Shown here: piece by piece, positions 1,798 through 58,557 of the stretch | Position numbering within the stretch: the stretch's first letter is position 1 | Layout: every line of letters begins with the position of its first letter | Assembly: GCA_964016885.1 (NCBI GenBank) | Contig: OZ024743.1 | Coordinates: forward strand, 16,988,001 to 17,052,000 | Reading direction: 5' to 3' | Source of the DNA: Eledone cirrhosa | Taxonomy: Eukaryota | DNA: 64,000 nt | The notes under the pieces: generated by a model | Told to the model about the DNA's origin: nothing | Database searches by the model: none | Seen by the model: only the letters and a program-made list of their open reading frames with translations | Made by a program: the position numbers and the translations under genes

Positions 1798-3688
1798 ATG
1801 GACGACTCACAGCTACACCAGGCTGACAGCCTTCCTCACAAACTAACAGCTCACACCAACACCACTATTGTAAATATTACTACCTTTGCCAACACTAACT
1901 ATATAAGCAGTAGTATTAATTTAGATTTATCTCCTGCAGACATTCATTTCCCGCCATTAACAATGACTGCAGGTGTTGAAGCTGCCACCCCCACCACCAC
2001 CACAGCGACAACAGAAAAAAAAATTATCTCGTGACATCGAAATGGATTCACTCATAATCAACTCTTCCACACCGGACACCACTGACGCCACCACCACCAC
2101 CACCACGACTGAAACTAAAAATAACAATAACAAAAACAGCAACAACAACAATGAGATTAACAACAAAAACATCAACACCACCGTAAATGTGTCATTTGCC
2201 AAAGCAGCCAAAAAATGCGAAACAATCCAGGTAACTCAGGAGAAATTAGATGAAGCCAAGAGAATGGTAAATAAAGATGGGTACATGGTCAGCCTACCCT
2301 CCCCCCCCCCCCAATAATAAAATGGAGCATCGGTGCCTACGCACCGTGCCTTATCGGAAGAATAACATAAATCGCGCCGAGTGGAACGGGCATCCGAGTC
2401 CCAAATCCAAAAAGCTTTGGGATATGTGTGGGTTAAAAACCTCACATCAGACGTGGGCAGAATTATGGAACCGTGGACGTGTTCTTTGGGACACCACAAG
2501 AGGCCAGAGAGCAATCCATGGCCCCATTAAGAAGCGACGACTTCACACTCGTCCCAAGCTATTGAGTACAGAGACTCGTAAAGATCAGGGTGACCCACGT
2601 TCCAGTGGCCATAGAAATTCACTGGCTAATGGCTGCCGTCCTCGCCGGCATCAAGGCCAACACCAAAATAATCGAAATAGCTAAAGAAAAGTAGGAGAAC
2701 TGGTCCGGATCTGGGATAGATCTCCTGATCCAAGCGGACCAAAAAAGCATTGAGGAGATCCCAAAGGTAATAGACCTCACTGACGGCAGCCACCTCACCG
2801 TAATCCTCGAGGGTAGAAGGTCTAGGTGTGTCGTTTGTGGTGAAGGAACCCACCTAAGAGTTTTCTGCCCTCAGGGTAAAAAGTTGAGGCCACCTATCTT
2901 ACACACCCCAGTGACTCAACCATCATCACCACCAGCAGCAGAAATGGCTGCAACAACAGAAGCAGCTGCAACAACAACAACCTACACCACCCAACGAGCC
3001 AGAACTAGCACCAGCGCCTACACCATCCACCGCGCCACAACCAAAACCAACCTGTGGAGGATTTTCCACTCCCCGACCTATCGCAACTGGAAACAGATTG
3101 TGACGACGAGGATTGGGAAACGGTACCAGGAAAAAAGAAAAAAAAGAAAAAATCGCCTTCCTTCCCCCTCCAGAAACAAAATACAAAGTGAAACAAATAA
3201 ACTATGAAACAAAAAAGTTAGGACAGCTATGCCACCACCACACCAGCATCACCAACAAATCACCACAAACACCAACACCATCACCATCATTAATCCCAAC
3301 ACCACCATCACCAACACCACAACAGTCACCAAAAAGCGAAACAGAAACAGACCCACAACAAACGCAAACAAAGCAAAACAACCAAAACAATACACACTAC
3401 ACAGCATTAAATTTGAACAACAACCAATTATTACACTACATGCAACACAACACCAGCATCACAGAAAAAGACTACACAACAACCTAAAAGTTCACACCAC
3501 CCCCACACATACAAATCACTCGCATCACACAGAAAACGTACACGACACTAAAACAAAAATTCCCCAAAGACATCGAAGACTTCCGACAAGCACTCTCCAG
3601 GATGACTTATAAGGACATCCTTCCGGAGGAGGGTGCAAGCAGTTAAAAGATTGGAGAAACCATGCTTCCTCTACGAGAAGTTAGGTAA
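1798..3688 (+). pseudogene. Tx1 ORF1 (T/N-rich N-terminus, RRM-like region, single zinc knuckle), disrupted
   Basis: CVVCGEGTHLRVFC knuckle at about 2827-2868. C-terminus LKQKFPKDI...LPLREVR*. Frameshifts and stops present. Confidence 0.8.
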
Positions 3689-3722
3689 GTTGTCTTTCCC
3701 ATCTTTTCCACTCCATTTCAAC

Positions 3723-6700
3723 ATGCGCGTGGCTTGGGTTCGTCATGGAGGCAGGGTCACCTGCTCAACGACCTCAGGTCACTAAACATAGATGTAGTAG
3801 CCATCAGCGAGACCAGTATCTCCGAAGCACGGGCCTTCGCACCGATATTCGACGGCTACGATGTGTACGCATCTCCCAGCCGTCCGGGATCGGGGGGTGG
3901 AGTTGCTGTGCTTTTTCGGAGAGGTTTGGATCTTGCCATACGGGCCATCTTCCTGGACCCAGAAGGTAAGTTGGTGGAGCTGGACGTGACCAGCGGAGAC
4001 GGGCAAGGTTTCAGGTTAGTGGCCGTCTATGCCCCGACAGGAGCAGGGCGGCCTGATTTCTTCCGGTGTCTAGAGACCTTTCTTGGAACGTCTCGCTCTT
4101 TAGTGTTAGTGGGCGACTGGAACGGGATCTGAGATGCACGCTGGGATTGTGTGGGATTAGTGGATAGTGAAGAAGGGTGCAAGAGTCTCACCAACCTGCT
4201 CAGGCGTTTTGAACTGTCTGACAGGTACCGATTGGATTTCCGGAATGTACCAATGTGGACTTGGACAAATCGCATAGGGTCATCCAGATCATATCTAGAT
4301 AGAGTATTTTGTAGGGAAATCGATAGGTCTAGCATAGGCTGTCCATAATTCAAGATAGTCAGCTACACGGACCACAAATTCGTGATCTGTGTGCTTGACT
4401 TAGATAGGCTTCATAGACGAGGACCCGGCGACTGGAAGCTAAACGCGTCCTTTCCAGCGCGCAAGGCCTACAGTGACCGGATTAGCGAACTAGTTAAGCG
4501 GGCGTTGACGGGGGCCATCGTCAACAACAAGTTGTGGTTTGCTCTGAAAAGAGCAATTAGAATAGAGTCCATTAGGTTTAGTAAGGCTTTAGCAATAGTG
4601 AAAAATAAAGCAGAGGGAGAATTAGTTAGAAAATTAGACGAGGCGCTTTGCAAAGGCATAGCGACCGACGTACTTGCGGCGTAATTGGCCCTTGACCAAT
4701 TCTTCAATGCAATGATTAAGGCTGCGTTGTCAGAGCTAGGGTGGGTGCTCTCAGACACGAGGGGACGAAAGCTGTTCGATGGGCCCGAGTGGTGGAGGCG
4801 CGTCGTCGCAACAAAGCCACGATCCGGTCTTTGGTGGACCACGACGGGCGCATGCTACTTGATCCCGGGCAAATGTGTGAAGATGTTCAGCGACACTTCG
4901 CTCAGCTGTTCGGGGGCAGTGGCGTGCCGGATCGAGGGATGGACTTAAGTGTCTACCTCCACGGACTGCCGCGGCTCTCGGCCACTGAGACGGAGTGTTG
5001 CGAAAAGCCGATAACAGCCGCTGAAGTACGGGAGGCATTGACTGGCTGCACAAGGGGTAAATCGCCTGGTTTGGATGGTCTGCTCTATGAACTTTACGTA
5101 CAAATGCCAGACTTGTTCGGAGGCCTCTTGGCGGACGTCTATTGCAAGTGGCAACAGAACGGGAGAATTCCCAGCTCTGTGAGCCGAGGAGCGGTGGCGC
5201 TGCTGAGAAAGGATCCGAACAAGGGGGATAACATAGATAATTTTAGGCCCATTATTCTGCTAAACACAGAGTTAAAGATTTTGGCCAAGGTGCTAGCAAA
5301 GAGGTAGGCGCTTGTCGTTGGTGGTCTGGTGGGAGAGGCGCAGACATGCGCCATTCCCGACAGATCCATCCACGACAACCTCCACCCCATGCGATACTTC
5401 GTAGAGAGGGTAGCTAGGGAACCTGGCACGGGTGGGTCCTTGATCAATTTAGATCAGTCGAAAGCCTTCGATAGGGTCGACCATCGTTACCTAGCGGCAG
5501 TCCTGAGGGCGGCTGGCTTTGGGCCCGTCTTCAGAGGCTGGATCGCTGCCATACACAGCGACATCTGCTCTGTGGTGAGAGTGAACGGTCACCTGTCGGA
5601 ACCGTTCAACATCATGCGCTCGGTCCGCCAAGGATGTCCCCTCTCGTCCCTCTTGTACGTATTGACTCTCGAGCCATTACTTCACAAACTGGAGACGTTG
5701 AGGGGGGTCCCGCGCGAACTAGGATGCGGAAGGTCCGTGTGGACGATGTCACCGTAGTGGTGTCGAACGCCAAACACATCGAGGCTATCGGCACTACACT
5801 AAGTGAATACGAAGCGGTGACAGGAGCAATGATCAACCAGGAAAAGTCTGTGGGCCTACAGCTCGGCACCTGGAGAGGCAGTTCCATGCCGTCCAACATC
5901 GTCGTCGGGTGCTGGACGGACGGACCGGTAAAATTGCTGGGGTCTGGTTCGGTCTGGACCTCCAGACGGACAAAAACTGGGACGAGGTGACGAGCAGGGT
6001 GACTTCTCTTACCCATAAATGGGCCGAGAGGAAGCTATCCGTGAAAAGTCGAGCGGAGGTGGCTAACGCGTACATCGCGTCCGTCATCTACTACCGCCTG
6101 ACCGTCGTACCTTGTCGTAAGCCCCGCCTGACTGCGCTGGAGCGTTTGCTCTTTCGCTTTTTGTGGAAGGGACGCGCTCCGATTGTCAGGCGGTCCATCT
6201 GTTTCAACACCCGCTACGTGGAGGGCTGGGCATGCCGTGGCTGATGATGCGCAGACACGCGCTCAGGCTACGACATCTCCACCTCTTCCTCGACTGTGAT
6301 CAGGTGTGGTCGCCGTTTGCTAGACACGTCTTTCCCCAGCTCGTCTCCTTGACGGAGCTGCAGTCCTGGGTCAAGCGAAGACCGAGTGGGAGCGCTTGGA
6401 GACCGGAATGTCTTCAGACGCTCACAGCCCTCGACCAATCGGGCAATGTGATCGGTGGAAACTCCACCTTGGCGTTCTATTTAGGATTAGTGGAGGGGAA
6501 GAGCGACGACGTACTTGGAGAAAATCCAGGCGTCGACGAAAATCAACTAGCCAATCTCTTCGGAAGGACTTTCGGGCCAGGGCCTATGGACAACTTCCAG
6601 AAATCCCTGGCCTGGCAGTGCTACCGGGGAGCTTTGCCAGTTCGGGATAAACTCTACAGGCATGGAGGTGCCGTCAGCCGGGCATGTCTGATTGCGCGCA

Positions 6701-7101
6701 GGCCGACGAAACCGTCCTGCACGCACTCGTCCAGTGTCCGAGCATTGCTGACTTGTGGGTTTATGTCGAACACCTGCTGTCAAGTGTAGGACGGATCCAT
6801 CTATCAGCTGAGTCCATCGTGAGGATTGCACCGCCCTCTTCCTTTAGCCGGGAAGGGTAGGACATTTTTTATCTGTCTGGTGGCCATGGCGAAAGAGATA
6901 GTATGGTGGATACGTTTGAAAGGGCTGAAGACGAGCACTTATCTCTTCGGTGATGCCCTGATTAACTTTTTCAAATTTCATTTGAAAAGGAAAATCAGGG
7001 TAGAGAGGGAAGTGCTCTCTTCCCAGCATTTTGTTGAAAGATGGGTGAGAGAAGCAAGTATGGCCCGAATGAATGGGCCTACTCTGAGTATCTGTCTGTA
7101 A
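3723..7101 (+). pseudogene. Tx1 ORF2 (APE endonuclease, RT, zinc finger), disrupted
   Basis: ISET, GDWN, SYLDRVF, TDH, KSPGLDG, FRPI, DQSKAFD, RQGCPLS motifs. YADD region partly deleted. Confidence 0.9.
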
Positions 7102-18990: not shown

Positions 18991-19203
18991 TATTACTATA
19001 TATATATATAGAGAGAGAGAGATAGATAGATAGATAGATAGATAGATAAATATACACGGGTGTGTATGATTGTGTATAGATGATTATAATAATAAAATGA
19101 TTTCCGACTTTGTCTGATTTACTCGTTTTATTTACAATCCTTTAACATTTTAATGGTATTAGAATGAAATAGTATGGTAGAATATGAAATTTTAAGTGTT
19201 AAT

Positions 19204-19242
19204 TGAACAAGTACTTTCATGCTTTCGCAATCTTGAAGTTCA
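19204..19242 (-). ncRNA. Hammerhead motif in 3' pLTR of PLE A, core mutated (UUCAAGA)
   Basis: Paralog of 23308-23346 with two core substitutions. Confidence 0.6.
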
Positions 19243-19622
19243 AAATGTGTGGTGACAGTCAAGTTTGTAATTTTCAACTGTAATGAGACGGGTAACATTT
19301 GAGCCTTATATACAGTGAAAAGTGCCTCCAGAATGCTAAATCTTGCAAACTGTATTTCGACCAATCGGTGTGTAATTTCACTGGATTACTAAAGCTGATT
19401 GGTTTAAGCGTCACGGTTGGTTGAGCATGTCTAATGACTACTATTTGACCCTATCCAAAGCATCAATTGTTTTGATATTTTTAGAAATGGTGAAAATAGC
19501 ATTTTCTAGTAATCATCAGCATCAACATCACTTTTTTTATTATTATTATTGTTGTTGTTGTTGTTAGTGGTCGTAGTCGACATGGTCCTAGTCATAGTCA
19601 TAGTAGGAGTAATCCCCCATTA

Positions 19623-21894
19623 TTATTGTTCATTTAGCTTGGGTGTGAATTCATCAATAACGTTCTTTGCTTTTATTTGTCTCTTGATTTCACTTGGGCT
19701 GTGTAATTTGTAGAATGGGAATATTATAAATATTCCCTGACCACATGTTGCTAGATGGTTACTTAGGGGTATCTGACGGACATTTGGGTCTCTGATTTGC
19801 TGTCGCTGTACCCGTGCACGTTCCGATGGTGCATTTCCAGTTTGACTGACATATAGTTCTTCACAATTCGGGCATTTAATGCAGTAAATTAGATTTCTGC
19901 TTTTGCAGTTTATATTTGCATTTGGGAATATTTTTCCAGTTTTTGTTTTCATATATTGGCCGGCGTGTATGGATTGACATGTACCACATCGACTATCATT
20001 GCATTTAGATAGAGTGAATGATTGGTCTTTGTTGGTAAGGGCAAATTTTGCTTTTGTTGGTAGTTGCTTCACATTTTTCGGCTGTCTTTTACTAAGAGTC
20101 AAAGATCGATCTGTGATTAAGCCTTTTAATTCATTACTTTGAGCAATGATCGGTAGGTTTGCTTTGGCAATGTTGAAGATATTCTGGTGACATGGGTTGT
20201 GTATCATTATAAATGGTATGACCAGTTCTTGGTTTCTTCTTCCTTGGGTTGTCCTAAGTTGTTGTATAGGTATTTTTATAGCCCGCTGTATGCAATTTAT
20301 AAATAAGTAGAGATGGGTATTTTTGTTTGAGCAAATATTCTCTTAGTTCTGTGAGGCGTTTGTACCTGATATTCGTATCTTCTACAATGGTACAAATTCT
20401 TCTGGCTAGGCAGTATGGGATGTTAAAATTCAGATATTGATGGGTGTCTGTGTGTTTATAATATATATCCGTGGTAATGCTGGCGTCGTTTTTGATTATC
20501 ATTATATCTAGGAATGGTTATTTGGTACTACTCATCTCTTTTGTGAATTGGAGAGATGGGTGTAGGTTATTCAGGAGGATATTGAACTCATCCAGAGTAT
20601 CTAGAGATTCTGTCCAGTTGATGAAACAGTCGTCATGGTATCTCTTCCAAGATTTTTCAATGTTTTTTTCTAAAGTCAGTACTATATTTTCCCTTTTTTT
20701 CTTGGTAGAATTGTTGTTCTAAGTATCCCATTACAGAGTTCGCGTAAACGGGAGCAAACTTCGTTCCCATCGCTGTACCTCTAATTTGAATGTAATTCTT
20801 TCCATTGAAGAAGAAAGTGTTGTTTTCCAGAATAAGTTTAACTGCGTGTAATACAAATGGCGCTGTAAATCTGATGGGAATCACTTCTCTATGTTTTTCC
20901 ACCCAGTATTTAACGATCTTTATTCCTAAATCACGTGTAATGTTGGTGTAAAGGCTTACCATATCAAAACTAAGTAGAAGTGAATTCGTTTCCGTGGTTT
21001 TGGGAAGAAGGGACAGGAAGTCGATATCATCCTGGATGAAACTGGTTATGTGAATACATAGTGGTTTCAAAATAATGTCAACAAAATTGCTTAGACGGAG
21101 GGTGGGGCATGTTGGACCAGCGATAATAGGTCTAAGTTTTAAGTCTTTTAGGTGTAGTAATTTAATGTACTCACTGTTTAGTTCTCTTACTGCCAGTTGT
21201 ATTTCTTTTGACTTATGAACTTTCGGTAGGCCATACAGGTTGCTGGGTTTGGGCTCAAAATTGGTGATGTAGTCTCTTTCCCTAGTGAGCTGTGGTATGT
21301 TGAAGCCAGGTTGTTGATTTTCTTCATGATGTTGGGGTCTATATTTGACGGTATTTCATGATAGAATGTTGTGTCTTTCAGTTGTTCCTCAACCAAATCC
21401 TTGTAGTATTCAGCAGCCATTATAACAACTGCACCCCCTTTATCTGCTTGTTTAATTATTATTGTTTTATCATTTTGTATACGTTTAAGTGCAGATATTT
21501 GTGATTTGTTAATGGTTGGCCTGGCATTAGTATTACGTTTAAGAAAAAATTTAGACACGATGTCAATGTATTGGTCGAGATAGATATTTCTTCCTTTTGG
21601 CGGAGTGAAATTTTATTTATTCTTTACTAGTGATTCATCACTCTCATTACTTCTATCAGTGAAGAATTCAAAAAGTCGTAATTTTCGACAGAATTCTTGG
21701 GTATCCTCCTTCAGTTCTTGGTGGTTGACTGTTGGAGTCGGTGTGAATTTCAGTCCTTATGACAGAATTTACATTTCATCATTGTCAAGATCAATTTTGG
21801 ATAAATTAATTATTTTAGGATCTACGTGTACAGTTGTTTTGGGTATGTTTCCTCCGGGAGTTTTTCTTTTTCCGGTTTTTGTTGTCCTGACGTT
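19623..21894 (-). pseudogene. PLE A RT-GIY-YIG ORF, frameshifted
   Basis: KIINLS, IKQADKGGAVV, RPIIAG, SFDMVSLYTNI, GTAMG, GIY-YIG. Confidence 0.88.
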
Positions 21895-23108
21895 AACAAA
21901 TGGATCTTGCTCTGTTCAGGATTTATATTCCTGTAGGTGTTTGCTTGATGAACTTTTGGACGTGATATTATATTTGGTTTCGTTATGTATTTTGTCCTAT
22001 TTTTGGTATTATGTATATTATTTCTCCATTTCTTGTTAGCATTACTTTTAACAATCTGGGGAAATGATCTAGGTTTGCTTTCAGCTTTAGATCGTTTTTT
22101 CGCCCAGTTTCATGTGGGTAATCTCTGTTGAGATCTTGAGAATGATCTCCTGGTTTTACTACTTCTGATGGTCTGGTCAAAGGAATATCTATCGTGTTTG
22201 TGCTTTTTGTTCATGTTGTGCGCGTTAAGGTGTTTTTGTAGAAAAAGCGAAGAGTTACTACCGTAGTTCTTCTTTGATTCAAGGAAAGGTGAGTGTTTGT
22301 GCTCGCACGTGTTCTGGCGTATGTTGTGTTGGTGAGATTGTCCACTTTTAATGCTTTTTCTCAGGGTTCCAGAGTCTTTACCGTAATTTGCAGCAGATTC
22401 GTCGAGAAATAATTGTTTCTGCTGCCATACCATTCTTGATTTGTTTTCTTCTTTTGAGATATCTCTGATCGATAGTTCTCGTTGTTTTTCAGCTATAATA
22501 CCAGTCGTTAGCTTTGAAATTTCAACTTCAATTTGGTCATCGATAGCTTCATATTTGGCTTTGTAGCGGGATTGTTTACATTGAGAAATGGAGATGTCGG
22601 TCCGGAATGTTGTCAATGTAAGTTCCCACCGGAGTTTTGTTTCTTCTTCTGGTTCTCCTGCAATTTCTGTAATTAGGTATGTACGAAGAACTATGGGTGC
22701 CGTTAGAGAGAGCCATTTCGAATTTGTTTCGACATATTTTTCGCATTTGTATGCTTTCCAGAAGTTTTGTTTTCTTATGTTAAGAAATATTTTGCAGATC
22801 TTCCACATTTCTTTTCTTATTCGATGTGTTTTGTTTTCCAAATTTCTATCGTTTAGTTCTGACATCCAAGGGGGTTGTGGTAGGCTTTCTCTTGTATTTT
22901 TGATAACTGTTGGTATAATTTCAGCTAAATTCTTAATTTCAGAGTTTATATGTTCAGTTATAAGTTTTCCGTCTGTAGATTGTTTTTCTATTTCCTTTAA
23001 AATAGAGGATTGTGTGTCAATCATAGTGATAAGTGTTGATAATTTCGATGATATCTCCTTTAGAATTCTTTCTGATTATGATGATTTCATTTGTTGCTTT
23101 CCAGACAT
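21822..23108 (-). pseudogene. PLE A ORF1 (uncharacterised helical N-terminal protein), two in-frame stops
   Basis: Single frame from ATG 23108 through TAA (about 23077) and TGA (22110) to TAG at 21822. Homologous to the N-terminus of 25611-28349. Confidence 0.7.
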
Positions 23109-23307
23109 GTTGGCATATACACAAGAGGAATATATATATTGATAGATAGATAAATATACACGGGTGTGTATGATTGTGTATATAAGATTATATTAATAAA
23201 AAGAATTCCAACTTTGTCTGATTTACTCGTTTTATTTACATTCTTTAAAATTTATAATGGTATTAGAATGAAATAGTATAGTAAAATATTAAATGTTAAG
23301 TGTTAAT

Positions 23308-23346
23308 TGAACAAGTACTTTCATGCTTTCGCAATCTTCAGGTTCA
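23308..23346 (-). ncRNA. Minimal type I hammerhead ribozyme, canonical core, 5' pLTR of PLE A
   Basis: tgaac CTGAAGA ttgc gaaa gcat GAAA gtac TT gttca. Perfect 5-bp stem I and palindromic stem III loop. Confidence 0.85.
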
Positions 23347-23556
23347 TAATGTGTCGCGACAGTCAAGTTTGCAATTTTTAACTGTAATGAGATGGGTAAA
23401 TTTCGTGCCTTATATATAGTGAAAAGTGGCTCCAGAATGCTAAATCTTGCAAACTGTATTTCGACCAATCGGTGTGTAATTTCACTGGATTGGTAAAGCT
23501 GATTGGTTTAGACGTCACGGTTGGTTGAGCATGTCTAATGACTATTATTTGACCCT

Positions 23557-23627
<71 letters not shown>

Positions 23628-23634: not shown

Positions 23635-23701
<67 letters not shown>

Positions 23702-23839
23702 AGTGTAATTTTCTACACAAAACGAAGGTTATAGAGAAAATTGAGGTTGGTAATGGCACATGGAATATATAAGAGATAGAATACTTTTTTGTGAAAAAAC
23801 ATACAATTTTATAAGGTAAGGAAATAATAAAGGGTATAA

Positions 23840-23888
23840 AAAATGACCGGTTTCGATGGGTCTGCAAAAGCCATCTTTTCAAATGTTG
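23840..23888 (-). ncRNA. Variant minimal hammerhead (U3-A8 core) in 3' pLTR of PLE B
   Basis: TTGAAAA gatgg-11nt-ccatc GAAA ccgg TC. Confidence 0.7.
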
Positions 23889-24249
23889 ATTAATATTAAG
23901 AAAAATTAATAATACGAAGAGTTAAAATTTGAGATTTGAAAATTCAAGTATAAAATTCATTGTGGGATTTCATAGTAGTTTTCATCTAGGTAGCAACAAC
24001 AGGTTGACTGCTGTGTCCCTTTCTGGTAGTGAATGAGGGTTTCTTTGGGGTGTGGGTTATTTTATAAAGGTCAGATTTAGCAATGGCCAAATGTCCAGCT
24101 GCTGGTCAGTGAGGGGGTGGATGCAATATACATACACATATCTTCCTGTGGTGGGTAGGAGAGTGGAGCGTGATAGAAAGGGATTTAGTGCACTTACACC
24201 TATATATACACACATACCTTCATCCACACATACATACATATACATATAC

Positions 24250-24834: not shown

Positions 24835-27800
24835 CTATTGGGGTGATAACCCGTTTAGTTTTGGTTTAAATTTGTTAAGGAATAGATTTTCTTTGTTTAT
24901 TCTTTGTTGTTGTGTGAACGAATCTGAGCACTTGTAGAAGGGGAAGATTTTAAAGTTGGGTAGTGTCATTCCTGCGCAGTTCGCAATATGGCTGCTCAAG
25001 GGGATTTTTCTTGTGTTAGCGTCCCGGATTTGTTGGCGGTGGATGGTCATTCTTTTGCGTAATGAGGTGCCCGTCTGTCCTATGTAGTTGTGTTTGCAAC
25101 CACCGCAAGTTATTGCGTAAATCAAGTTCTCCGAGTTGCAGGTGAAATTGTTTTTTACTGTAAATGTTTGGCCATCTTTGAATGTAAATGTTTGTCCTTC
25201 AGTGAGGTAGAGGCACGTTCCACAGTTTGTTCTACCACATTTGGTAACTGTAGGGTTGAGGATTGGTTTGGGTATATTTGGTCCAGTGAGAATGCGTTTA
25301 AGTGATTTGGGTTGTCTTTTACTTTTAAGGATCTTGTGTGTTTCAAGAATAGACTTCATTTTTACATCTTTAAGTTGGATGGGGAGGTTTTTGTGTAGGT
25401 GATCAAACATTTCGGTATTTCTGGGGTTGACAGTGGATACATATGGCAGGGTGTTGAGTGTGGCTTTCTGTTTTGGATTGTTAAGTTGATGGGGATTTAG
25501 GTGTTTTGCCCTGTCTATTCCATTGTTGATTATTTCAAGTGGAAAGGCTCTTAAGATAAGGGTGTATTTTAGTTCCTTTAGTATTTGCTCCCGTTTAGGT
25601 GGATCTGATACTATGGTACATATACGCTGGCCAAATTGTAAGGAATGTTAAGTTTGGTATGTTTTGGGTGACTTGATGTGAAAAAGAGGTATTGCTTGGA
25701 ATCTGTGGGTTTATAGAATATATCTGTATCTAATTTCCCGTCTATTACAGAGATGAGAATATCCAAGAAGGCTAATTCCTTAGGATTGGATTCCATTGTG
25801 AATTGTATGTTATTATCTATGTTGTTTATCATGTTTTTAAACGTAGTAAGTGAGTTCATGTCTTCTTGCCATAGGATAAAGCAGTCGTCTAGATATCTTT
25901 TCCAATTGGCTTTGAGGTGTGTGTGGAAAGAGTCTCCAAATAAGAGAAGGGACTGACTGTATATTTGTTGTTCATGGAATCCCATGACTAGGTTGGCATA
26001 TGTGGGTGCTACTTTCGTGCCCATTGCCGTACCTGATACTTGTCTGTATGTTGAACCATTGAATGTGAAGTAGTTATATTGTAGGATAAAGCGGAGTCCG
26101 TCAGTGATAAAATCTGTGTTGATGCCTGTCGGTATTTCTGATGGGTGTGTGTTAAGCCAGTATTGGACTGCTGTTATTTCATAGTTGTGAGGTATGTTTG
26201 TGTAGAGGTTTATTACGTCAAAGGAGACAAGAATTGTATTTGCACTTACTGTTTTAGGGAGGTGTTTCAGCATGTCAAGGTCATCTTTTATGTAGCTCTG
26301 TATATGTTGTAGAAAGGGTTTCAGTAGGATATCCAGAAAGTTGCTAAGTCTGTGGGTTTCACATGTAGGGCCTGCTATAATTGGCCTGAGTTTTAGGTCT
26401 TCTGGTGGTGTTAGTTCAATGTAATTGTTGGTTGAGGTGTCACATGCATCGTTTATGGGTTTACATTTGTGGAGTTTCGGTAAGCCGTAAAAAGAGCTTG
26501 TATTGCATTTGAAGTGGCTTATATAGTTAAACTCTTTTGTGGTTAAGCTGTTGCGGTATTTATTCAGTAAGGTCAAAAGGTTCCCCATTGTTTTGGTGTG
26601 TTTGTAGTTTTCTGTTTTTTCATAGTATGTGTTGTTTTCTAAAACGTTAAGTGCGAGGGTCCTATAGTAGTCCGTATTCATAATGACAACAGTACTGCCT
26701 TTATCGGCTTCTTTGATAGTTATCTCAGGGTTGTTTCTAAGTGAGAATAATTCTTCCCATTCGTGTGTAGATAGGTTTGATTTCGTGTGTTTATTTGTAA
26801 TTTTTTCATAGGGAAAGTTGGTGATGTGTTCGCAGTACGTGTCCAGTGCTTTATTTCTTCCCTTTTGTGGGCAGAAATTGCTTTTATTTCTAACCAGTGA
26901 TTCGTCTTCAGTGTTGGTGTCGTTGTGGAAGAATTCCGTTAGTCGCAGCTTTCGGCAGTATTCCATGATGTCATCCTTCATTTCGGGGAAGTTTGGTTTG
27001 CGTGGTGTAGGTGTAAATTTCAGGCCCTTTCTTAAAATGTTGATTTGTGTGTTGGTTAGAGGTGTCTTTGAGAGGTTGATTATTTTTGGTTTCTCCTGAG
27101 GGGGGGGGGGGCATCGAGTATCCTGGTATTTCAGGCTTTTCCCTAAAAAAGGAATGTAGTTTTGTGTGTGATTATAATTTGTTGGTCTGTTGCGTGTGGG
27201 TCTGTAGCTTGTTGCTTCATGAGGGTGAATGTGATGGTGGGGGTGGTATGTGTTGTGGTTGTTGATGAGCAAGGGTTCTGTTGTTGGTTCATGTGGTCTG
27301 GGTGCGTTATTTCTGTGGTACAGAGTGTTGAGGTTGGGGGGTTGTCTTTTGTTGGATTGAGGGTGATGTCTGGTGTGGTTGTAGGTAAGTTCTGTTGTGA
27401 TTTCAAGTGGTCTGGGTGGATTTCTTCTGAGGAATGTGGTGTGTGTGTTGTGAGTTGGATCTATGTTATTTCGTCGTTGGTTTATGTAGGGGGCATTTCT
27501 ACGGAAACCTGTGTTGTGGTGGTTGGGTGTGTTTCTTTTGGTGTAGTTGGTCGTATTTGGTTTGTGTTGGTGGGGGATGTGCCTGTGGTTAGTGTGTGTT
27601 GGGTTTGGTGGTGTAAATGTGTCTGTTGTAGTTCTTGTTATGTTCAAATGCTTTATAAAGGGGTTACCTGTTTGGTGCGTCCTTTTAAAGTCTTCTTCAT
27701 ATTCGAGGAACCAGTTTTCGGATTTTTCCCACCGTTTAAGGGAAATAGTTTCTGTATTCTCGCAGTCCTGTTTCCACGATTTGATTAAATTTTGTAGAGT

Positions 27801-28349
27801 TGTTCCCTCGGCCTTTTTAGTGCATTCTTCCTCCATATGTTTATCAGTATCCTTATACTCTTGATCGTTTGAGGTGGCCCTTAATTTTAGGAGTTCTATT
27901 TCCATGTTTATCCTGATGAGTGATATTTGTTCACGGAGTTTTCTTTCTGGTTCAGGTTCGTTTGTAATATGCTTTATTTGGAATTTACGTGGTAAAACTA
28001 TCGGTGTTGAGTTAATCCATTTTTGGTAAATTCCAGCTTTGTTGAGGTTTTTTATCATATTCCAGAAAGTGAATTTTCTGGTTTTTAGATGTTTTTTCCA
28101 GAGGTGTCCCATTTGGTTTTTTATATGGAGCAATTTCGTTTGTTCTGTGTTGGTATTCATAAGTTTTTCGATGGAGTTGCATACGTTTTGAACGTTTAAA
28201 TAAATTCGCTTGTCAGTCGGTGTGGTGGTTTGGGGTATATCCTGTTTTTTTGTCAGAATGGTGAGTTTTCCATTTATCTCTTTTAGGATTTTCAGGATTT
28301 CCTCATTTATATTGGAGTTTGAAGTTGTGTTGTCTTGTTCCAGTGCCAT
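24835..28349 (-). CDS. PLE B polyprotein: N-terminal domain, RT, GIY-YIG endonuclease (one frameshift near 25628)
   Basis: 912-aa ORF with IKEADKG, SFDVINLYTNI, GTAMG, KRYLDD. Continues in another frame to CGRTNCGTC...LIYAITCGGCKHNYIGQT. Confidence 0.9.
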
Positions 28350-28520
28350 TTTCCGGATTTGCGTAGGTTAGTATATATGAAAAGTGTAATTTTCTACACA
28401 AAACAAAGGTTATAGAGAAAATTGAAGTTGGTAATGGCACATGGAATATATAAGAGACAGAATACTTTTTTGTGAAAAAACATATAATTTTATAAGGTAA
28501 GGAAATAATAAAGGGTATAA

Positions 28521-28569
28521 AAAATGACCGGTTTCGATGGGTCTGCAAAAGCCATCTTTTCAAATGTTG
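28521..28569 (-). ncRNA. Variant minimal hammerhead (U3-A8 core) in 5' pLTR of PLE B
   Basis: Identical to 23840-23888. Confidence 0.7.
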
Positions 28570-29115
28570 ATTAATATTAAGAAAAATTAATAATACGAAG
28601 AGTTAAAATTTGAGATTTGAAAATTCAAGTATAAAATTCATTGTGGGATTTCATAGTAGTTTTCATCTAGGTAGCAACAACAGGTTGACTGCTGTGTCCC
28701 TTTCTGGTAGTGAATGAGAAGTTATTTGGGGTGTGGGTTATTTTATAAAGGTCAGATTTAGCAATGGCCAACTGGCCAGCTGCTGTTCAGTGAGGGGGTG
28801 GAAGCAATATACATACACATATCTTCCTGTGGTGGGTAGGGGAGTGGAGCGTGATAGAAAGATATGTGTATGTATATTGCTTCCACCCCCTCACTGACCA
28901 GCAGCTGGCCAGTTGGCCATTGCTAAATATGACCTTTATAAAATAACCCACACCCCAAATAACTTCTTATTCACTACCAGAAAGGGTCACAGCAGTCAAC
29001 CTGTTGTTGCTACCTAGATGAAAACTACTATGAAATCCCACAATGAATTTTATACTTGAATTTTCAAATCTCAAATTTTAACTCTTCGTATTATTAATTT
29101 TTCTTAATATTAATC

Positions 29116-29164
29116 AACATTTGAAAAGATGGCTTTTGCAGACCCATCGAAACCGGTCATTTTT
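29116..29164 (+). ncRNA. Variant minimal hammerhead in inverted pLTR tail of PLE B
   Basis: aacat TTGAAAA GATGG cttttgcagac CCATC GAAA CCGG TC atttt. Confidence 0.7.
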
Positions 29165-29262
29165 TATACCCTTTATTATTTCCTTACCTTATAAAATTAT
29201 ATGTTTTTTCACAAAAAAGTATTCTGTCTCTTATATATTCCATGTGCCATTACCAACCTCAA

Positions 29263-32060
<2,798 letters not shown>

Positions 32061-46886: not shown

Positions 46887-49800
46887 TGTTCTTTGAGTAT
46901 CAGTCATTGATGTTAGTTAACTGGAAATTTTGTTGAAATGAATATCAAGCCACTACCTGCAGCCTCAGATATTCAGGATGTATCGGAGGGTTCTTGCTGT
47001 TCCCAGCAAGCATGCCTTTTGAAGCGTTCCAAAAAGCGTGAAGGGGCCAATTTTCTTTAACCATCCCTGGAAACTTGTTGAGATAGTCCCTAGTGCGCCT
47101 ATGACAATCGGGATCACTTTGACATCATGGCAGTTCCAAATACTTTTTAACTCCCACTTTAAGTCCTGGTATCGGTTAATTTTCTCCCTCTCCTTCTCTT
47201 GCACTCTAGTGTCGAATGGGCAGGCCACATCCACAATCAGGCACGATCTTCTTTCTTTGTCCACAACCACCAGGTCAGGTCTATTGTGTTCCAGTTTCTT
47301 GTCCGTCTGTATCCTAAAATCCCACAGCACATTCACCTGATCGTTTTCTATAACCGCCTCTGGCTTATGCTCATACCACTTCTCAGAATGTGGTAAATTG
47401 TTTACTTTGCATAGGTGCCAGTGGATCACCCTGCCCATCACATCATGTCTCCAGCCCTTATAGTGAGTCAGGGCTAGGTGTTTACACTCGGATACAATGT
47501 GAGCCACAGTCTCCTCTCTCTCTCCACAGATCATGCACAGTGGGCTAGCCTCCTCCTTGTAAGTATGGTGTTTCAACCACTTCGATTTGAGGGCCTGCTC
47601 CGGCGCAGCCATTAACATTAATTCTGTAGCCTTTTTAAGGTCTCCTCTTTTCAACCAGTTCCATGTCTGTGGATCTCTAAATTCAGTTTTCTGAAAGAAG
47701 GTACTATGAAGGGATGTTTCCTGAAGGCTGCTCTTTCTCCTTGATGTTATTTTCTCCTTAGACATCCCCTGGCCTATTGTCCCCTCCTTCAGTACAGTTC
47801 TGGGCATTGGCTCCTTACTATCAGTCACGTATTTGTGTAGGTTGTTTTTCTCCATCTGAACACAGTCCTCTATGCTGATAAGAGCTCTTCCACCTTCAGA
47901 TCTCCTTAAGTAGAGTCTATCGACATCACTCCTCTTGTGGAACATGTTGTAGATAGTCAATAGCTTCCTAGTTTTCCTATCCATTTCTTTCTGTTCAGCA
48001 ACATTCCATCTCAGAATTCCCGCACTGTACCTAATAATAGACACAACTGGGGAATTTACTGCACTTATGGCATTCCTACTGTTCAGATGTGACTTTAATA
48101 CGCTCCTTACTCTCCGAATGTATTCAGTTCTTATCAATTCCTTCATTTTTTTGTTCTTGATGTCATCAGCCTCCAGAACGCCCAAATACTTGTATCCTTC
48201 TTCAGAGTCGATTTACCTTATCATCGCACCCGTTGGTACCTGGATTCCGTCACCTCTGCTCAACTTACCCCTCTTCATCACAATGACTCCAGACTTTCTA
48301 ATACCAAATTGCATACATATATCATTGGTGAAAATACGGACAGTGTCAACAAACACAGCCAACTCCTTCTCACACTTCCCGAAGAGCTTAAGATCGTCCA
48401 TCAAGAGGAGGTGATTGATGGTAATCCCTCCCTTTCCCAACCTGTATCCTGCTATCACTTTTCGCAGTACACTGGTCAGGGGCATCAGGGCAAGGACAAA
48501 CAACAGAGGGGACAGACTATCTCCCTGGAAGATACCTCTCTTGATTATCACGCTTCCCAAGAATTCTCCAGTTGATGTTAACTCTGTTTCCCTGGACTTC
48601 ATACTTTTGCCCAACAACTGTCTGATGTTATCTCCCACCTTGAAGATCTCCAGGCTTTTAGTGATCCAAGAATCGGGCACCATGTCAAATACCTTTTTGT
48701 AGTCTATCCATCCCATGGCAAGATCAGTGTGTCTCCTCTTGCAATTCCTCATTACCATCTTATCAATAAGTAACTATCCTTTGTACCAAGTGACTACTTT
48801 CGGCATCCTTTCTCTTCGTCCGGTAACAAGTTGTTTGTATGGAGGTGATGGTAGATTTCCTCAGAAATAATGCTTGTCAACAGTTTCCACATTACGGACA
48901 GACATGTGATAGGTCTATAGTTGGTAACATCATTACCCTTGATTTGGTCTTTCATTATCAGAACTGTGGTACCTTTTGTCAACCACTCTGGTACCTCACC
49001 TGACATCAAGCAGTCATTGAACATGGTTGTCAGTTTCGGGTGGAGGGATGTCATATTTTTAATCCAATACCCCTGCACACCATCTGGGCCTGGTGATTTC
49101 CAGTTGGTTAGTTTTTTGGCCTGCCCCTTAAGAGTTTCAACTGTGATACTCAAATCAGTTTGTTGGTGTGCCTGTTCACTAATCTCCTTCTGCACTGTCT
49201 CAATCCACACTGCCTGGTCATTATGTTTATCATCCTGCTCCCATATTCCTCTCCAGAATGTTTTAGTTTGTTCCGCCTCAGGGATCAAGTCGTTGCCTCT
49301 TTATTTCCCTTCAAGCTGTCCAAACAGCATCTTCTGGTTGTTGTCGAACATGCGGTTCTGTCTATACTGGCTGACTCTTTTCTCGTATCGCCTGATTTTT
49401 GCGTTCTTTGCTACAATGCGTTGCTTCAGTTCCTCTATGATAATATTTAAATTTTTCCACCTAGTTTTGTACTTTATTTCCAGTCTATTTTTAGTGTCTA
49501 TGTTTTTTAGTGTCCCATTCAGTAGGGACTCAAGATTTCCAATGTCATTTCTCATTTCCCTGATTTGAACACTCGGTCGTTTCTTCCACCAAGGCTCTGC
49601 TCTTTCTTGTCTGTTGTTTCCTCTCGCTTTTATACCAAGTGGTTTTAGCACCGTATTTGCTGTTGCTTTGAGGATAGTGTTGCACTGTTGAAGGCTCCTC
49701 GCCTCAAGGTATGGGATGACTTTGTTTACCTTAGCTGTTGTTTCTTTTAACTTTTTCCTGTCTACAAATCTTAGGTTCATAGGTCTCCCACTATCATTGT

Positions 49801-50742
49801 TCAATTCTTCTACCACTAAGTTTAGGATATCAACCAAATCTTGTCCTAGCCTATCAGCATTCATCTCCTCAGTGGCCGTATCTCTGTTCCAGGTATTATT
49901 TATCTCAGCATTCAGATCGTTGTCTGCTTCGGGTGGTTCCTCCGTTCTCTCGACCTCTTCAGCTTCATTTCCCACTGGCTCGTTTGCCTGGCATACTCCA
50001 CCCTCCATCTCCAACCTAATCTCTCTGTTCAGTTCCTCCAGTTCCTGCTCGCTTATCCACCCATTAGTTCTTATTACCCGAGCCTGCCCGGCCAATTTTT
50101 GTTCATCTAATTTAAATAGAGCAATCTCGTTCAAGATGTCATGCATCCGTTTCCTATAGCCTTTCTCCTTGGGGTTACTCTTCAGGCAACATTGCATAAC
50201 AGTTCTATTCAATTCTTTCTTCCAGTTGGTTCTGTTCCCTTTCCTTCTTCTTCTTCCTCCGACACCAGCAGTATTTTGTTGACAGCCAGGTCCCTGCTGC
50301 TGAGCCAGGGAGCACCTGTTGGGTGAGAGTCTGTCACATGACATTCTAGTCTCCATTTCAACGTTATTCGAACTGTTTATGTTCGACATTGAAACACTCT
50401 TATCGAGGATTGGCGAATGTTTGGTTACATAACCACCGGTGAATTCATCGTCTCCGGTGGTTCCGTCACTCCACGTGATTTTTCTGTAGACGAACATAAA
50501 TAAACAAACAAACAGGCAAAAAAAAACAAAAAAATGAATAAGCATAAGTTTCATTGTAATGTAGTGTTTGAATGTCTTACTTAGTTTTTCCCTTCCCTTC
50601 TCTGTCCGTCTGTTTGTTTTTCTCTTCATTCTTATTTACTTTACGTTTTTCGTTGTTGCTGTGCTGCTTTTATTTTAATTTTTGTTTTTTTGATTTTGAC
50701 CGGGTCATCAATTCAGTCTATTTATATATTTTGCTGCCTTCC
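46887..50742 (-). mobile_element. R4/Dong-like element, family A copy 3 (most complete)
   Basis: (TTA)n on both flanks. RT, CCHC and RLE domains present. Confidence 0.93.
46965..50389 (-). pseudogene. Dong-like polyprotein: RT, CCHC finger, PD-(D/E)xK restriction-like endonuclease (few disruptions)
   Basis: WKSPGPDG, YRPITCL, QGDSLSP, LMDDLKL, CMICGEREETVAHIVSEC, RHD, NRPDLVVVD...VD...EKINRY. Confidence 0.92.
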
Positions 50743-50807: not shown

Positions 50808-53800
50808 GGCGACCTACGTAGTATATCGTATCATCGTGAGCTCCGCAAAGGTTTGTTATTTCCGTTTGTTAAAAATTGCCATTTATGGAAAATTTTATTT
50901 TTGACTGTTTATAAGCGCACATACATTGTTTTCCGAAAAGGACACCCAAAAAGATTGGGGCTTTGTGCCCAAAATTTAAACTTTTATGATCATCCAAAAA
51001 ATTTCTTTGAAAAAAAATGGCTAATTCACCTCTGCACCAAGCAGCTGGTGAGCCTTCCTATCAAACTAACACCTCACACCGACACCACCATCGTAAATAT
51101 TACTACGTTTGCCAACACAAAAAATTTAAGCAGTAGCAATATTTTAAATTTGTCTCAGGCAGACATTAATTTCCCGCCATTACCAATGACTGCAGGTGTT
51201 AAAGCCACCACCACCACCACCGCGACAACAGAAACAAAAGAAGAAAAAATAAATTAACTCGAGGTGTCGAAATGAAATCAAGCAAAATGGACTCTTCTCC
51301 ACCGAACACCACTGACGTCACCAGCACCACAACTGAAACTAAAATTAATAATAACAAAAATAAGGATAACAACAACACCAACAATGACTTTAAAAAAACC
51401 ACCCTGAGTTTTGCCAGAGTAGCAAAACAGTGCGAAGCATTTCAGGTAACTCGGGAGGAATTAGAAAATGCCAAAAAAATGGTAAAGAAAGATGGGTACA
51501 GGGTCAGCCTCCCCCCCCCCCCCCCCCCCTACCTAATAAAATGGAGCATCGGCGCCTATGCACCGTGTCGTATCGAACAATTAATGTAAAATCGCGCCGA
51601 GTGGAACGGGCATCCGACTCCCAAATCCAAAAAGCTTTAGGAAATGTGTGGGCAAGAAAAACCCACATCAGACGTGGGCAGAAGTATGGAACCGTGGACG
51701 TGTTCTTTGAAACACCAGAGGAGGCTAGAGAACACTCCATAGCCCCATTAAGAAGTGACGACTTCACACTCGTCCCAAGCTATTGTGGCCAGAGACTCGT
51801 AAAGATCAGGGTGACCCACGTTCCACCGGTCATCGAAATTCCCTGGATAATAGCGGCCGTCCTGGCCGGCATCGAAGCCAACACAAAGATAATAGCAATA
51901 GCAAAAGAAAAGCAGGAGAACTGGTCCGGATCTGGGATGGAGCTCCTGATCGAAGCGGACCAAAAAAGCATTGAGGAGATCCCAGAGGTAATAGACCTCA
52001 CTGACGGCAGCCACCTCACCATAATTGTCGAGGGCAGAAGGCATAGGTGTGTCGTTTGTTGTGAAGAAACCCACCTAAGGGCTTTCTGCCCTCAGGCTAA
52101 AAGGTTGAGGCCACCTCTCCTACCCACGCCAGTGACTCAACCATCAACAGCACCAGTAGCAGAGATGGCAGCCACAACTGTAGCAGCAACAACAGAAGCA
52201 ACTATAACAGCAACAACCCCAGCAACAGTAGCAAAACCAACACCACCACCACCCACCGCTTCAGAACTAGCACCAGCGCCTACACCATCCACCGCGCCAC
52301 AACCAAATCCAACGCCTGTGGTGGATTTTCCACTCCCCGGGCTAACATAACTGGAGACAGATTGTGACGACGAGGAGTGGGAAACGATATCAGGAAAAAA
52401 AAAAAAAAAAAAAAATGCTCTTCCTTCCCCCTCCAAAAACAAAATACAGAGGGAAACAAATAAATTAACAAATAAAAAAGTTAGGACAGATATGCCACCA
52501 TCCACACCAGCATCACCAACCCCATCACCCCAAACACCAACACCATCACCATCATTAACCCCAACACCACCATCACCAACACCACAAAAGTCACCAAAAT
52601 GCGAAACAGAAACAAACCCACAACAAACGCAAACAAAACAATACAACCAAAACGATACACACTACACTGCATTAAATTTGAACAACAACCAATTATTACA
52701 CTACATCCAACACAACACCAACATCACAGAAAAAGACTACACAACAACCCCAAAATTCACACCACCTCCACACATACAAATCACTCGCATCACACAGAAA
52801 ACGTACATGACACAAAACAAAAATTCCCCAAAGACATCGGAGACTTCCGACAAGCACTCTCCAGGAGGATTTATAAGGACATCCTTCCTGAGGAGCCCAC
52901 AAGCAGTGAAAAAGTTGGAAAAACCGTCCTTCCTCTACGAGAAGTAAGGTAAGTGGTCTTTCCCATCTGTTCCACTCCTTTTCAACATGACCTCACTCAG
53001 AATAAGCCGCATAAATGCGCGTGGCTTGGGGTCGTCATGGAAGCAGGGCCATCTGCTCAACGACCTCAGGTCACTAAATATAGATGTAGTGGCCATCAGC
53101 GAGACCAGAATCTCCGAAGCACGGGCCTTTGCACAGATCTTCGGCTGCTACGATGTGTACGCATCTCCCAGCCGTCCGGGATCGGGGGGAGGAGTTGCTG
53201 TGCTTTTTCGGAGAGGTTTGGATCTTGCCATACGGGCCATCTTCCTGGACCCAGAAGGTAAGTTGGTGGTGCTGGACGTGACCAGCGGAGACGGGCAAGC
53301 TTTCAGGTTAGTGGCCGCCTATGCCCCGATAGGAGCAGGGCGGCCTGATTTCTTCCGGTGTCTGGAGACCATTCTAGGAATGTCCCGCTCTTTAGTGTTA
53401 GTGGTCGACTGGAACGGGGTCTTAGATGCACGTTGGGATTGTGTGGGATTAGTGGATAGGGGAGGAAGGTGCAAGAGTCTCACCAACCTGCTCAGGCGTT
53501 TTGAACTGTCTGACACGTACCGATTGGATTTCCCGAATGTACCAATGTGAACTTGGACAAATCGCATAGGGTCATCCAGATCATATCTAGATAGAGTATT
53601 TTGTAGGGAAATAGATAGGTCTAGCATAGGATGCCACAATTCAAGATAGTCAGCTACACGGACCATAAATTCGTGATCTGTGTGATTGACTTACATAGGC
53701 TTCATAGACGAGGACCCGGCTACTGGAAGCTAAACGCGTCCTTACCAGCGCGCAAGGCCTATAGAGACTAAATTAGCGAACTAGTTAAGCGGGCGTTGAC

Positions 53801-56334: not shown

Positions 56335-56336
<2 letters not shown>
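50808..56336 (+). mobile_element. Tx1 family 1 copy 3, full length, decayed (ORF1 51017-52952, ORF2 52987-56092)
   Basis: 5' GGCGACCTACGTAG, knuckle CVVCCEETHLRAFC, APE and RT motifs. YADD region deleted near 54970. Confidence 0.93.
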
Positions 56337-56368
<32 letters not shown>

Positions 56369-56577
56369 GGCGACCTACGTAGTAAATCGTATCATCGTGA
56401 GCTCCGCAAAGGTTTGTTATTTCCGTTTGTTAAAAATTGCTATTTATGCAAAATTTTTATTGTTAACCATATATAAGCGCACATACATTGTTTTCCGAAT
56501 AGGACACCCAAAAAGATTGGGGCCTTGTGCCCAAAATTTAAACTTTTATTATTATCAAAAAATTTCTTGGAAAAAAA

Positions 56578-58557
56578 ATGGCTAATTCAGCTCTGCACCA
56601 AGCAGCTGAAAGCCTTCCTCACAAATTAACACCTCACACCGACACCACCATTGTAAATGTTACTACGTTTGCCAACGCTACAAAAAATTTAAGCACTAGC
56701 AATATTTTGAATTTGTCTCAGGCAGACATTAATTTCCCGCCATTACCAATGACTGCAGGTGTTAAAGCCTCCACCACCACCACCGCGACAACCACCACCC
56801 CCACCATCTTCGCGACAACAGAAACAAAAGAAGAAAAATATAAATTAACTTGTGATGTCGAAATGAAATCAAGCAAAATGGACTCTTCCCCACCAAAGAC
56901 GACTGACGTCACCACCACCACAACTGAAACTAAAATTAATATTAACACAAATAACGATAGCAACAACAACAACAATGACATTATAAAAACCACCCTCAGT
57001 TTCGCCAGAGTAGCAAAACAGTTCGAAGCATTTACGGTAACTCTGGAGGATTTAGAAAATGCCAAACAAATGGTAAAGAAAGATGGGTACAGGGTCAAAA
57101 CACCTAATAAAATGTAGCATCGGCGCCTATGCACCGTGTCGTATCGAACAATAAATATAAAATCGCGCCGAGTGGAACGGGCATCCGAGACCCAAATCCC
57201 AAAAGCTTTGGGACATGTGTGGGCAAGAAAAACCCACATCAGACGTGGGCAAAAGTATGGAACCGTGGACGTGTTCTTTGAAACTCCAGAGGAGGCTAGA
57301 GAACACTCCATGGCCCCATTAAGAAGTGACGACTTCACACTCGTCCCAAGCTATTGTGGCCAGAGTGTCGTAAAGATCAGGGTGACCCACGTTCCTCCGG
57401 CCATCGAAATTCCCTGGCTAATAGCGGCCGTCCTCGCCGGCATCGAAGCCAACACAAAAATAATAGCAATAGCAAAAGAAAAGCAGGAGAACTGGTCCGG
57501 ATCTGGGATGGAGCTCCTGATCCAAGCGGACCAAAAAAGCATTGAGGACATCCCAGAGGTAATAGACCTCACTGACGGCAGCCACCTCACGGTAATTGTC
57601 GAGGGCAGAAGACCTAGGTGTGTCGTTTGTGGTGAAGGAACCCACCTAAGAGCTTTCTGCCCTCTGGCTAAAACGTTGAGGCCACCTCTCCAACCCACCC
57701 CAGTGACACAACCATCAACACCACCAGTAGCAGAGATGGCAGCAACAACTGTAGCAGCAACAACAGAAGCAACTATAACAGCAACAACCCCAGCAACTGT
57801 AGCAAAACCAACACCACCACCACCACCAGCAAAACCAACACCACCACCACACAACGCTTCAGAACTAGCACCAGCGCCTACACCATCCACCACGCCACAA
57901 CCAAAACTAACGCCTGTGGAGGATTTTCCACTCACCGGCCTATCACAACTGGAGACAGATTGTGACGACGAGGAGAGGGAAACGATATCCAGAAAAAAAA
58001 AGAAACCAAAAAAGAAAAAATTCTCTTCCTTCCCCCTCCAAAAACAAAATACTGAGGGAAACAAATAAACTAAGAAACAAAAAAGTTAGGACAGATATGC
58101 CACCATCCACACAAACATCACCAACCCCATCAACCCAAACACCAACACCATCACCATCATTAACCGCAACACCACCATCACCTACACCACAAAAGTCACC
58201 AAAATGCGAAACAGAAACAAACCCACAACAAACGCAAACAAAACAATACAACCAAAACGATACACACTACACAGCATTAAATTTGAACAACAAGCAATTA
58301 TTACACTACATCCAACACAACACCAGCATCACAGAAAAAGACTACACAACAACCCCAAAATTCACACCACCTCCACACATACAAATCACTCGCATCACAC
58401 AGAAAACGTACATGACATTAAAAAAAAATTCCCCAAAGACATCGGAGACTTCCGACAAGCACTCTCCAGGAGGATTTATAAGGACATCCTTCCTGAGGAG
58501 GCCACAAGCAGTGAAAAGGATGGAAACACCGTCCTTCCCCTACGAGAAGTAAGGTAA
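56578..58557 (+). pseudogene. Tx1 ORF1 (RRM-like region plus zinc knuckle), disrupted
   Basis: GTVDVFF, KIRVTHVP, CVVCGEGTHLRAFC, ends LPLREVR*. Confidence 0.85.

Follow-up and report, generated by a model that had tools for sequence, protein, structure and literature searches.

The window analysed here, 64,000 nucleotides of genomic DNA from Eledone cirrhosa, contains two Penelope-like elements (PLEs), PLE A and PLE B, arranged head to tail and separated by (TA)n. PLE A raises the question of how a reverse transcriptase (RT) is translated from a frame that has no start codon ahead of its N-terminal motif and that overlaps the end of another frame.

The ORF1/RT joint in the window copy of PLE A

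The features of PLE A are as follows:

21822 to 23108, minus strand: ORF1, decayed (reading frames; intact family copies encode 449 aa)
21894 to 21900, minus strand: position of the slippery site, T TTG TTA in the window copy (family alignment)
21916 to 21918, minus strand: TGA closing the RT (-1) frame (frame reading)
21822 to 21824, minus strand: ORF1 stop TAG (frame reading)
19623 to 21915, minus strand: RT-GIY-YIG frame (-1), with IINLS at 21813 and a CX4CX2C linker before the endonuclease (frame reading; intact copy L121)
23130 to 23560, minus strand: 5' pseudo-LTR, a direct repeat of the element's 3' end (23542-23130 matches the 3' end)
19040 to 19456, minus strand: 3' pseudo-LTR, with a hammerhead core that is degenerate in the window copy (sequence reading)
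23308 to 23346, minus strand: minimal hammerhead-like motif in the 5' pseudo-LTR (by eye: CTGAAGA core, short stem II, GAAA, palindromic stem III)

The ORF1 frame runs from ATG 23108, past premature stops at 23078-23076 (TAA) and 22112-22110 (TGA), through CAT TTG TTA at 21902-21894 to the TAG, which lies 69 nt (23 codons) past the heptamer. The RT frame, which reads TEQDPFVNVRTTK...DPKIINLS, is offset by -1 relative to ORF1, has no ATG ahead of IINLS and is closed by the TGA 15 nt (five codons) 5' of the heptamer. An earlier note on this DNA had described the two ORFs, the start at 23108, the heptamer site, the TAG, the -1 offset and an RT frame without ATG before IINLS and closed just 5' of the heptamer, and re-reading the minus strand reproduced all of these. 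The RT-GIY-YIG frame has stops or indels near 21285, 20669, 20424 and 20299, and the window copy is approximately 91-95% identical to an intact family copy. Because of the stops and indels in the RT this copy is dead, and copies elsewhere in the genome therefore had to be consulted. The window element is a decayed, endonuclease-bearing (EN+) Penelope-like retrotransposon from a lineage with two overlapping frames.

In PLE B, the pseudo-LTR copy at the 3' end is direct and that at the 5' end is inverted (28370-29260, 23700-24240). The window also contains a 386-codon frame at 30599-31756 (minus strand) that resembles the RT of another PLE type, and decayed frames resembling non-LTR retrotransposons, recognized by eye at 46968-50635 (minus strand) and at 2200-7000 and 51394-61720 (plus strand).

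The heptamer is conserved in family A

Family A was surveyed in the 3.0 Gb host genome at its 30 best loci, 29 of which were aligned. T TTT TTA is intact at 26 of the 29 aligned loci and, by translation, at the unaligned locus L028, i.e. at 27 of 30. The exceptions are the window copy and L002 (TTTGTTA) and L011 (CTTTTTA), and the G in the window heptamer is common only to the window and L002, which bears out the earlier reading of T TTG TTA as a degenerate U6A site. The distance from the heptamer to the GLKF motif is 144 nt in 25 of the 28 loci that could be resolved among 34 examined. In the intact copies L121 and L124, ORF1 encodes 449 aa and overlaps by 94 nt an RT-GIY-YIG frame of 775 codons, whose first Met lies 13 codons past IINL. 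Against Pfam, L121 matches RVT_1 under the cut-off (E 2.9e-6) and GIY-YIG over it (E 3.2e-6).

The hammerhead core CTGAAGA is present in 15 of the 16 family-A motif matches at loci of this genome (regular expression), and the core of family B is atypical. Rfam did not find a hammerhead ribozyme, and its only matches were microRNA-like chance matches on repeats. In many copies of family A, part of the ORF1 tail is duplicated in tandem without loss of frame, so that the SRSQQRLPTRN stretch occurs twice; this duplication marks a subfamily with fully open frames and is lacking in the window copy (22162-22113, compared with L121).

A variable poly-C run accounts for the single frame of PLE B

The features of PLE B are as follows:

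24838 to 28349, minus strand: coding region, with ATG 28349, ORF1 and RT to 25614 and the GIY-YIG part at 25647-24838 (frames, Pfam)
27144 to 27150, minus strand: intact T TTT TTA, then GGG (intact in 30/30 family-B loci)
27100 to 27111, minus strand: run of 12 C that fuses ORF1 and RT in the window copy (family alignment, short-read contigs)

That PLE B has T TTT TTA intact at 27150-27144 had been noted before; the point that had been missed is that window PLE B reads as one continuous frame, a single 918-codon stop-to-stop frame (28367-25614) that passes through the heptamer into the RT. Taken alone, this single frame would refute the two-ORF idea and would fit a true element with one ORF, in which the offset is due to decay or to an assembly indel; further observations of this kind come from family B, in which three loci have full fused frames of 1176-1181 codons and nine of 150 frames exceed 1000 codons. 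However, window PLE B is in one frame because its poly-C run, 33 nt past the heptamer, has expanded to 12 C, and across family B the length of this run varies whereas the heptamer is constant (30/30 loci). The commonest family-B allele, G plus seven C, gives the -1 two-ORF layout. For the matches of a protein search whose anchor lies 3' of the run, a manual count gives as the mode a separate RT frame that is exactly 777 codons long (44/150), and in DNA-type short-read contigs from three runs on one sample the depth of the G plus seven C allele is 405-483 compared to 830-985 for family B, or approximately half. The intact family-B copy L127 encodes an ORF1 of 421 aa with the RT in -1. Moreover, the fused loci have no derived alleles in common and look like the product of repeated slippage because they are not one lineage; assembly error in long C runs is a possible source of some of the alleles. 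Given that families A, C, D and E (see below) are in the -1 relation throughout, a single-ORF element is already refuted by the family censuses, and we regard it as the least credible of the explanations considered here.

The hypervariable run lies between the heptamer and IINL in the window copy (27111-27100, minus strand), L081, L088-L090 and other family-B loci. Among 50 distinct loci, in a sample biased towards the allele of the window, the run places 23 in -1, 14 in a fused frame and 13 in +1.

The same alignments bear on the proposal that some RNAs are in frame because slippage of RNA polymerase or RT on the T-run has added a base to them. The six-T run is invariant, and one contig of one short-read run (X4) has one added base there. 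Added bases would be inherited because RNA is the genome of the element; yet an inserted T is found at none of the 30 family-B loci and none of the 29 aligned family-A loci. In addition, the phase of the run would not matter for slippage of this type, whereas the phase is fixed. We consider this proposal very improbable.

Five families share the layout

Searching the genome with a DNA pattern that is blind to the heptamer, IINL[ST]...GLKF, gave 1413 places, with one in the control, and the first 30 matches in positional order fall into five families, A to E. In all five, T TTT TTA is in slip phase and precedes IINL by 63-87 nt; the RT frame is closed 26-35 codons upstream, and up to 450 codons of the ORF1 frame are open. 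The in-phase heptamer is intact in 21 of the 30 loci, and in the rest it has decayed by single changes or indels. Family A is 46-49% identical to the other four in the RT and 21-24% in ORF1; because D and E cluster together at 70% identity, four independent lineages is the safer count. The ORF1 tails of the five families are unalignable, and Phe-Leu are the only invariant residues at their ends.

The earlier note had named two outcomes that would speak against its proposal, a family consensus forming one continuous ORF and a heptamer that is not conserved. Instead, ORF1 and RT-EN occupy separate frames, offset by -1, in intact copies of A (L121, L124), B (L127) and D, and the heptamer is kept in five families and in distant relatives. 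The two-ORF layout, the -1 offset and the conservation and phase of the heptamer are thus established. Together they suggest that the RT is reached by programmed -1 frameshifting at the conserved U UUU UUA/G in the ORF1/RT overlap, and on this basis we consider the frameshift, which the note had already put forward, to be very probable and the best explanation of the data.

Relatives in metagenomes and the start of the RT frame

To look beyond this genome, 77 metagenome loci were fetched, of which 50 were usable, forming 28 RT clusters at 70% identity; the loci dropped had no N-terminal match (14), short upstream DNA (2), an unresolved frame (6) or fewer than 70 RT codons (5). An in-phase T6A (12) or T6G (3) is present in 15 of the 28 clusters, and in 13 of the 15 clusters that are at least 44% identical to A, compared to a background of 12 sites in 43,652 nt, or 0.023 expected per window and phase. 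Among 15 loci with a long upstream frame, 13 have the longer frame at the -1 offset and an RT frame that is closed within 47 codons. The site is absent in 13 of 28 clusters, nine of which have an RT frame that is open for 63-472 codons upstream with a Met. Most of these nine lie on one branch (support 99 in a quick tree of unnamed loci only) that also includes the site-bearing L189. Thus, two-ORF and single-ORF lineages coexist, and the slippery site is not present in all relatives. No relatives were found among viral contigs.

Several loci differ in their joint. L150, sister of a U6A cluster, has C CCU UUU in slip phase instead, and the ORF1 homologues P0109 and P0125 have no Phe-Leu before a tail similar to that of L150, hinting at a switch of slippery sequence. 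A T6C at 228 nt in L213 was treated as chance.

A rival reading is that the RT-EN protein is made separately, by internal initiation or by reinitiation after the ORF1 stop. In family B the RT frame contains an ATG nine codons ahead of IINL, and the decayed related locus L140 likewise has one near the ORF1 stop. In addition, ORF1 in L203 (2440-2500) and L206 is of a different type: it is 400 codons long and keeps the same frame relation but has no slippery heptamer, and its stop overlaps an ATG, which opens only a few codons. These loci illustrate another way of joining ORF1 and RT. Families A, C, D and E, on the other hand, have no Met before IINL, so that in four of five families no RT start codon precedes the N-terminal motif: the first Met of the RT frame is at +13 in A, at about +33 in D and E and at about +135 in C, where it lies past the DKG motif. 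Similarly, 16 of 17 metagenome loci with an in-phase T6A/T6G have no upstream RT-frame Met. Separate synthesis also leaves the heptamer unexplained, and we consider it improbable; internal initiation could apply to family B only.

ORF1 is a protein family of its own

A word-based search of proteins with ORF1 yielded a single relative, and a profile search was needed: a profile of the ORF1 core finds 973 clusters at E <= 0.001. ORF1 is called as a stand-alone protein, because none among the best 150 of these 973 clusters exceeds 706 aa. The ORF1 core was found inside none of 39 long single-ORF relatives (best E 0.06), no Pfam family matched ORF1 above cut-off, and a fold search with the ORF1 model gave no match in the PDB at E <= 0.001. 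The AlphaFold model of the L121 ORF1 has long helices to about residue 245 followed by a disordered basic tail (pLDDT mostly >85 at residues 90-240 and <50 at 247-449).

Because the ORF1 homologues come without DNA, Phe-Leu was used as a stand-in for the heptamer. Among 80 homologues of at least 330 aa, 67 have Phe-Leu in the last 47 residues, compared to 7.4 +/- 2.5 in shuffles; as controls, Phe-Leu occurs in seven in an upstream window, Leu-Phe in six and Phe-Phe in five.

These counts help to evaluate splicing, in which the T-run would be a polypyrimidine tract with a splice acceptor and removal of an intron would join an upstream start to the RT frame without any frameshift. Splicing is the most serious rival, given that a G usually comes after U6A: in 17 of the 25 DNA loci with the site the heptamer and this G make TTTTTTAG, which resembles a splice acceptor. 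Moreover, family A has CAG seven bases past the heptamer, and PLEs carry introns according to the available text of PMC8557442. Nevertheless, there is no AG at the heptamer end in eight of the 25 DNA loci, family A included, and the codon after Phe-Leu cannot begin with G in at least 23 of the 67 ORF1 homologues. Nor would splicing fix the phase of the T-run in ORF1 (67 Phe-Leu compared to six Leu-Phe and five Phe-Phe of 80) or the -1 relation. We therefore consider splicing unlikely, if slightly less so than separate synthesis of RT-EN.

Returning to programmed frameshifting, we suggest that a minority of ribosomes would slip back one base at the heptamer and produce an ORF1-RT-endonuclease fusion, whereas most would end at the ORF1 stop and release the helical, basic-tailed ORF1 protein, which is likely the RNA-packaging component. 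The slip would thereby set a gag-pol-like ratio of ORF1 to enzyme. Several observations count against a frameshift: the lack of a conserved fold (see below), the RT-frame ATG of family B, the fused family-B alleles, the resemblance of TTTTTTAG to a splice acceptor and the 13 of 28 clusters without the site.

What could stimulate the slip

In none of the five families is the folding downstream of the site stronger than that of shuffled sequences (z -1.45 to +1.31), and D and E have no fold at all in the 50 nt downstream. Among the metagenome slip loci z is below -2 in four of 20, and these folds are unlike each other. A conserved stem-loop or pseudoknot 5-9 nt downstream was not found when minimum-energy folds were compared with those of shuffled sequences and local stems were sought in a simple scan, tests that address local folds. 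That no conserved downstream structure is predicted is thus established at this level; with the classical stimulator missing from the sequences, slip efficiency could be low.

The position of the ORF1 stop follows a pattern. None of the 67 ORF1 homologues has fewer than 10 residues after Phe-Leu (about 29 expected from a geometric spread), and 22 of 67 have exactly 10. Nineteen of these 22 fall in one clade of 24 and are non-independent, and the other three are in another clade; the cores of the nineteen, however, have a median identity of just 36%, and their ten residues have no common sequence. Because the stop-to-IINL distance varies from 11 to 50 nt in DNA loci with a 30-nt spacing, the position of the ORF1 stop is tied to the heptamer rather than to the RT motif. 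Heptamer-to-stop spacing is 22-23 codons in A and its relatives, 19 in B and 20 in C, and many loci have 11-17. A rule of strict multiples of 10 codons in all lineages was rejected, in view of the 22-23 codons of A and relatives and of common values from 11 to 40. L147 (2-391) and L189 (569-2257) break the 10-codon floor, with stops four and two codons past U6A, respectively; L189 is 28% identical in the RT; its ORF1 is unrelated, 563 aa long and gives a faint NXPE-like match, and a short hairpin comes directly after its site.

In the available text of PMC7397865, the A sites of the two ribosomes of a disome are 30 nt apart, and no disomes were seen on stop codons in liver. Tentatively, and as a possibility rather than a probability, we suggest that -1 frameshifting is structure-free in a large EN+ PLE clade and that the roadblock is a ribosome that is terminating at the ORF1 stop or waiting in a queue behind it. 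With the ORF1 stop in the A site of a leading ribosome, UUA would occupy the P site of the one trailing it, which would collide while moving over the slippery site; the distance from U UUU UUA to the stop would be kept at one ribosome length (10 codons) or more, and at precisely that length in one whole subclade. The spacings in A (22-23), B (19), C (20), L147 (4) and L189 (2), the many spacings of 11-17 and the liver disome result count against this model.

Relation to known elements

An ORF1-RT frameshift is associated with the endonuclease-less Athena/Terminon PLEs. The elements described here have a GIY-YIG endonuclease: PF01541 is above cut-off in window PLE B and in the intact A copy L121, and it has no match in the decayed window A fragment. 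Their RT is of the PLE type, with the N-terminal motifs GLKF and DKG and the core motifs in alignment, and RVT_1 matches at E 1e-6 to 3e-6, just under the Pfam cut-off. Pseudo-LTR direct repeats are present in PLE A. The CX4CX2C linker of A, B and D fits the CX2-5CxxC of Neptune/Nematis; of the earlier label 'Neptune-like' only this linker stands, and it is common to Neptune and Nematis. The portions of PMC8557442 consulted describe for these two clades an arrangement like that found here, i.e. an RT followed by a C-terminal GIY-YIG, a Zn-finger-like CX2-5CxxC linker, pseudo-LTRs, a hammerhead-like motif, for which family A has a candidate, and (TA)n flanks.

In agreement with the earlier note, canonical EN+ PLEs are described as single-ORF in the available text of PMC8557442, PMC11167929, PMC6431247 and PMC6515669, and PMC6431247 sets them against two-ORF elements without endonuclease. 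By contrast, families A, B and D have a separate ORF1 that overlaps the RT in the -1 relation, with a conserved in-phase X XXY YYZ heptamer inside the overlap. A killifish Neptune (PMC12602865) is reported to have two ORFs that do not overlap, and the word 'frameshift' does not occur in the text available to us. The legend to Fig. 1 of PMC8557442 (Craig et al. 2021) mentions, for clades unnamed there, an 'ORF1 separated by a frameshift with a pseudoknot'; as far as this legend goes, those types resemble the present families in a coiled-coil-like ORF1 joined to the RT by a frameshift, whereas here an endonuclease is present and no conserved pseudoknot is predicted.

Among viruses, the U_UUU_UUA of HIV-1 gag-pol (excerpts of PMC5009743, where 'Penelope' does not occur in the first 300,000 of 449,034 characters) is alike in heptamer, phase, a frequent following GG and the order of a structural and then an enzyme ORF. 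Unlike HIV-1, the PLEs have no strong stem-loop after the site and are non-viral, and no protease, integrase or envelope gene was seen in them. For SARS-CoV-2 the available text of PMC8168617 likewise proposes that the distance from the slip site to the 0-frame stop matters via trailing ribosomes; there the stop is five codons away, which is proposed to let the pseudoknot refold, whereas nearly all PLE stops lie at a distance of 10 codons or more, and the PLEs have no conserved fold.

In the literature searched, we found no description of a U6A site in EN+ PLEs, and the available parts of PMC3846280, PMC5408684, PMC5718144 and a 2026 retrozyme preprint contain nothing on it; Fig. 1 or the supplements of PMC8557442 may show the layout. 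Priority for a U6A frameshift joint in EN+ PLEs is thus probable. The mechanism is known and the element class is known, and their combination is new as far as the literature, in the portions available, was searched.

Implications

The ORF1 described here is a missed protein family with 973 clusters and no Pfam entry. The picture of a widespread group of retrotransposons shifts from single-ORF to gag-pol-like, and a 'frameshift' in the consensus sequences of such elements is not damage. For enzyme purification and annotation, the true N-terminus likely includes ORF1. The 10-codon floor provides a natural, easily tested case of whether ribosomes at termination can promote -1 frameshifting in the absence of an RNA structure and, if the roadblock model were true, enzyme output would scale with ribosome load.
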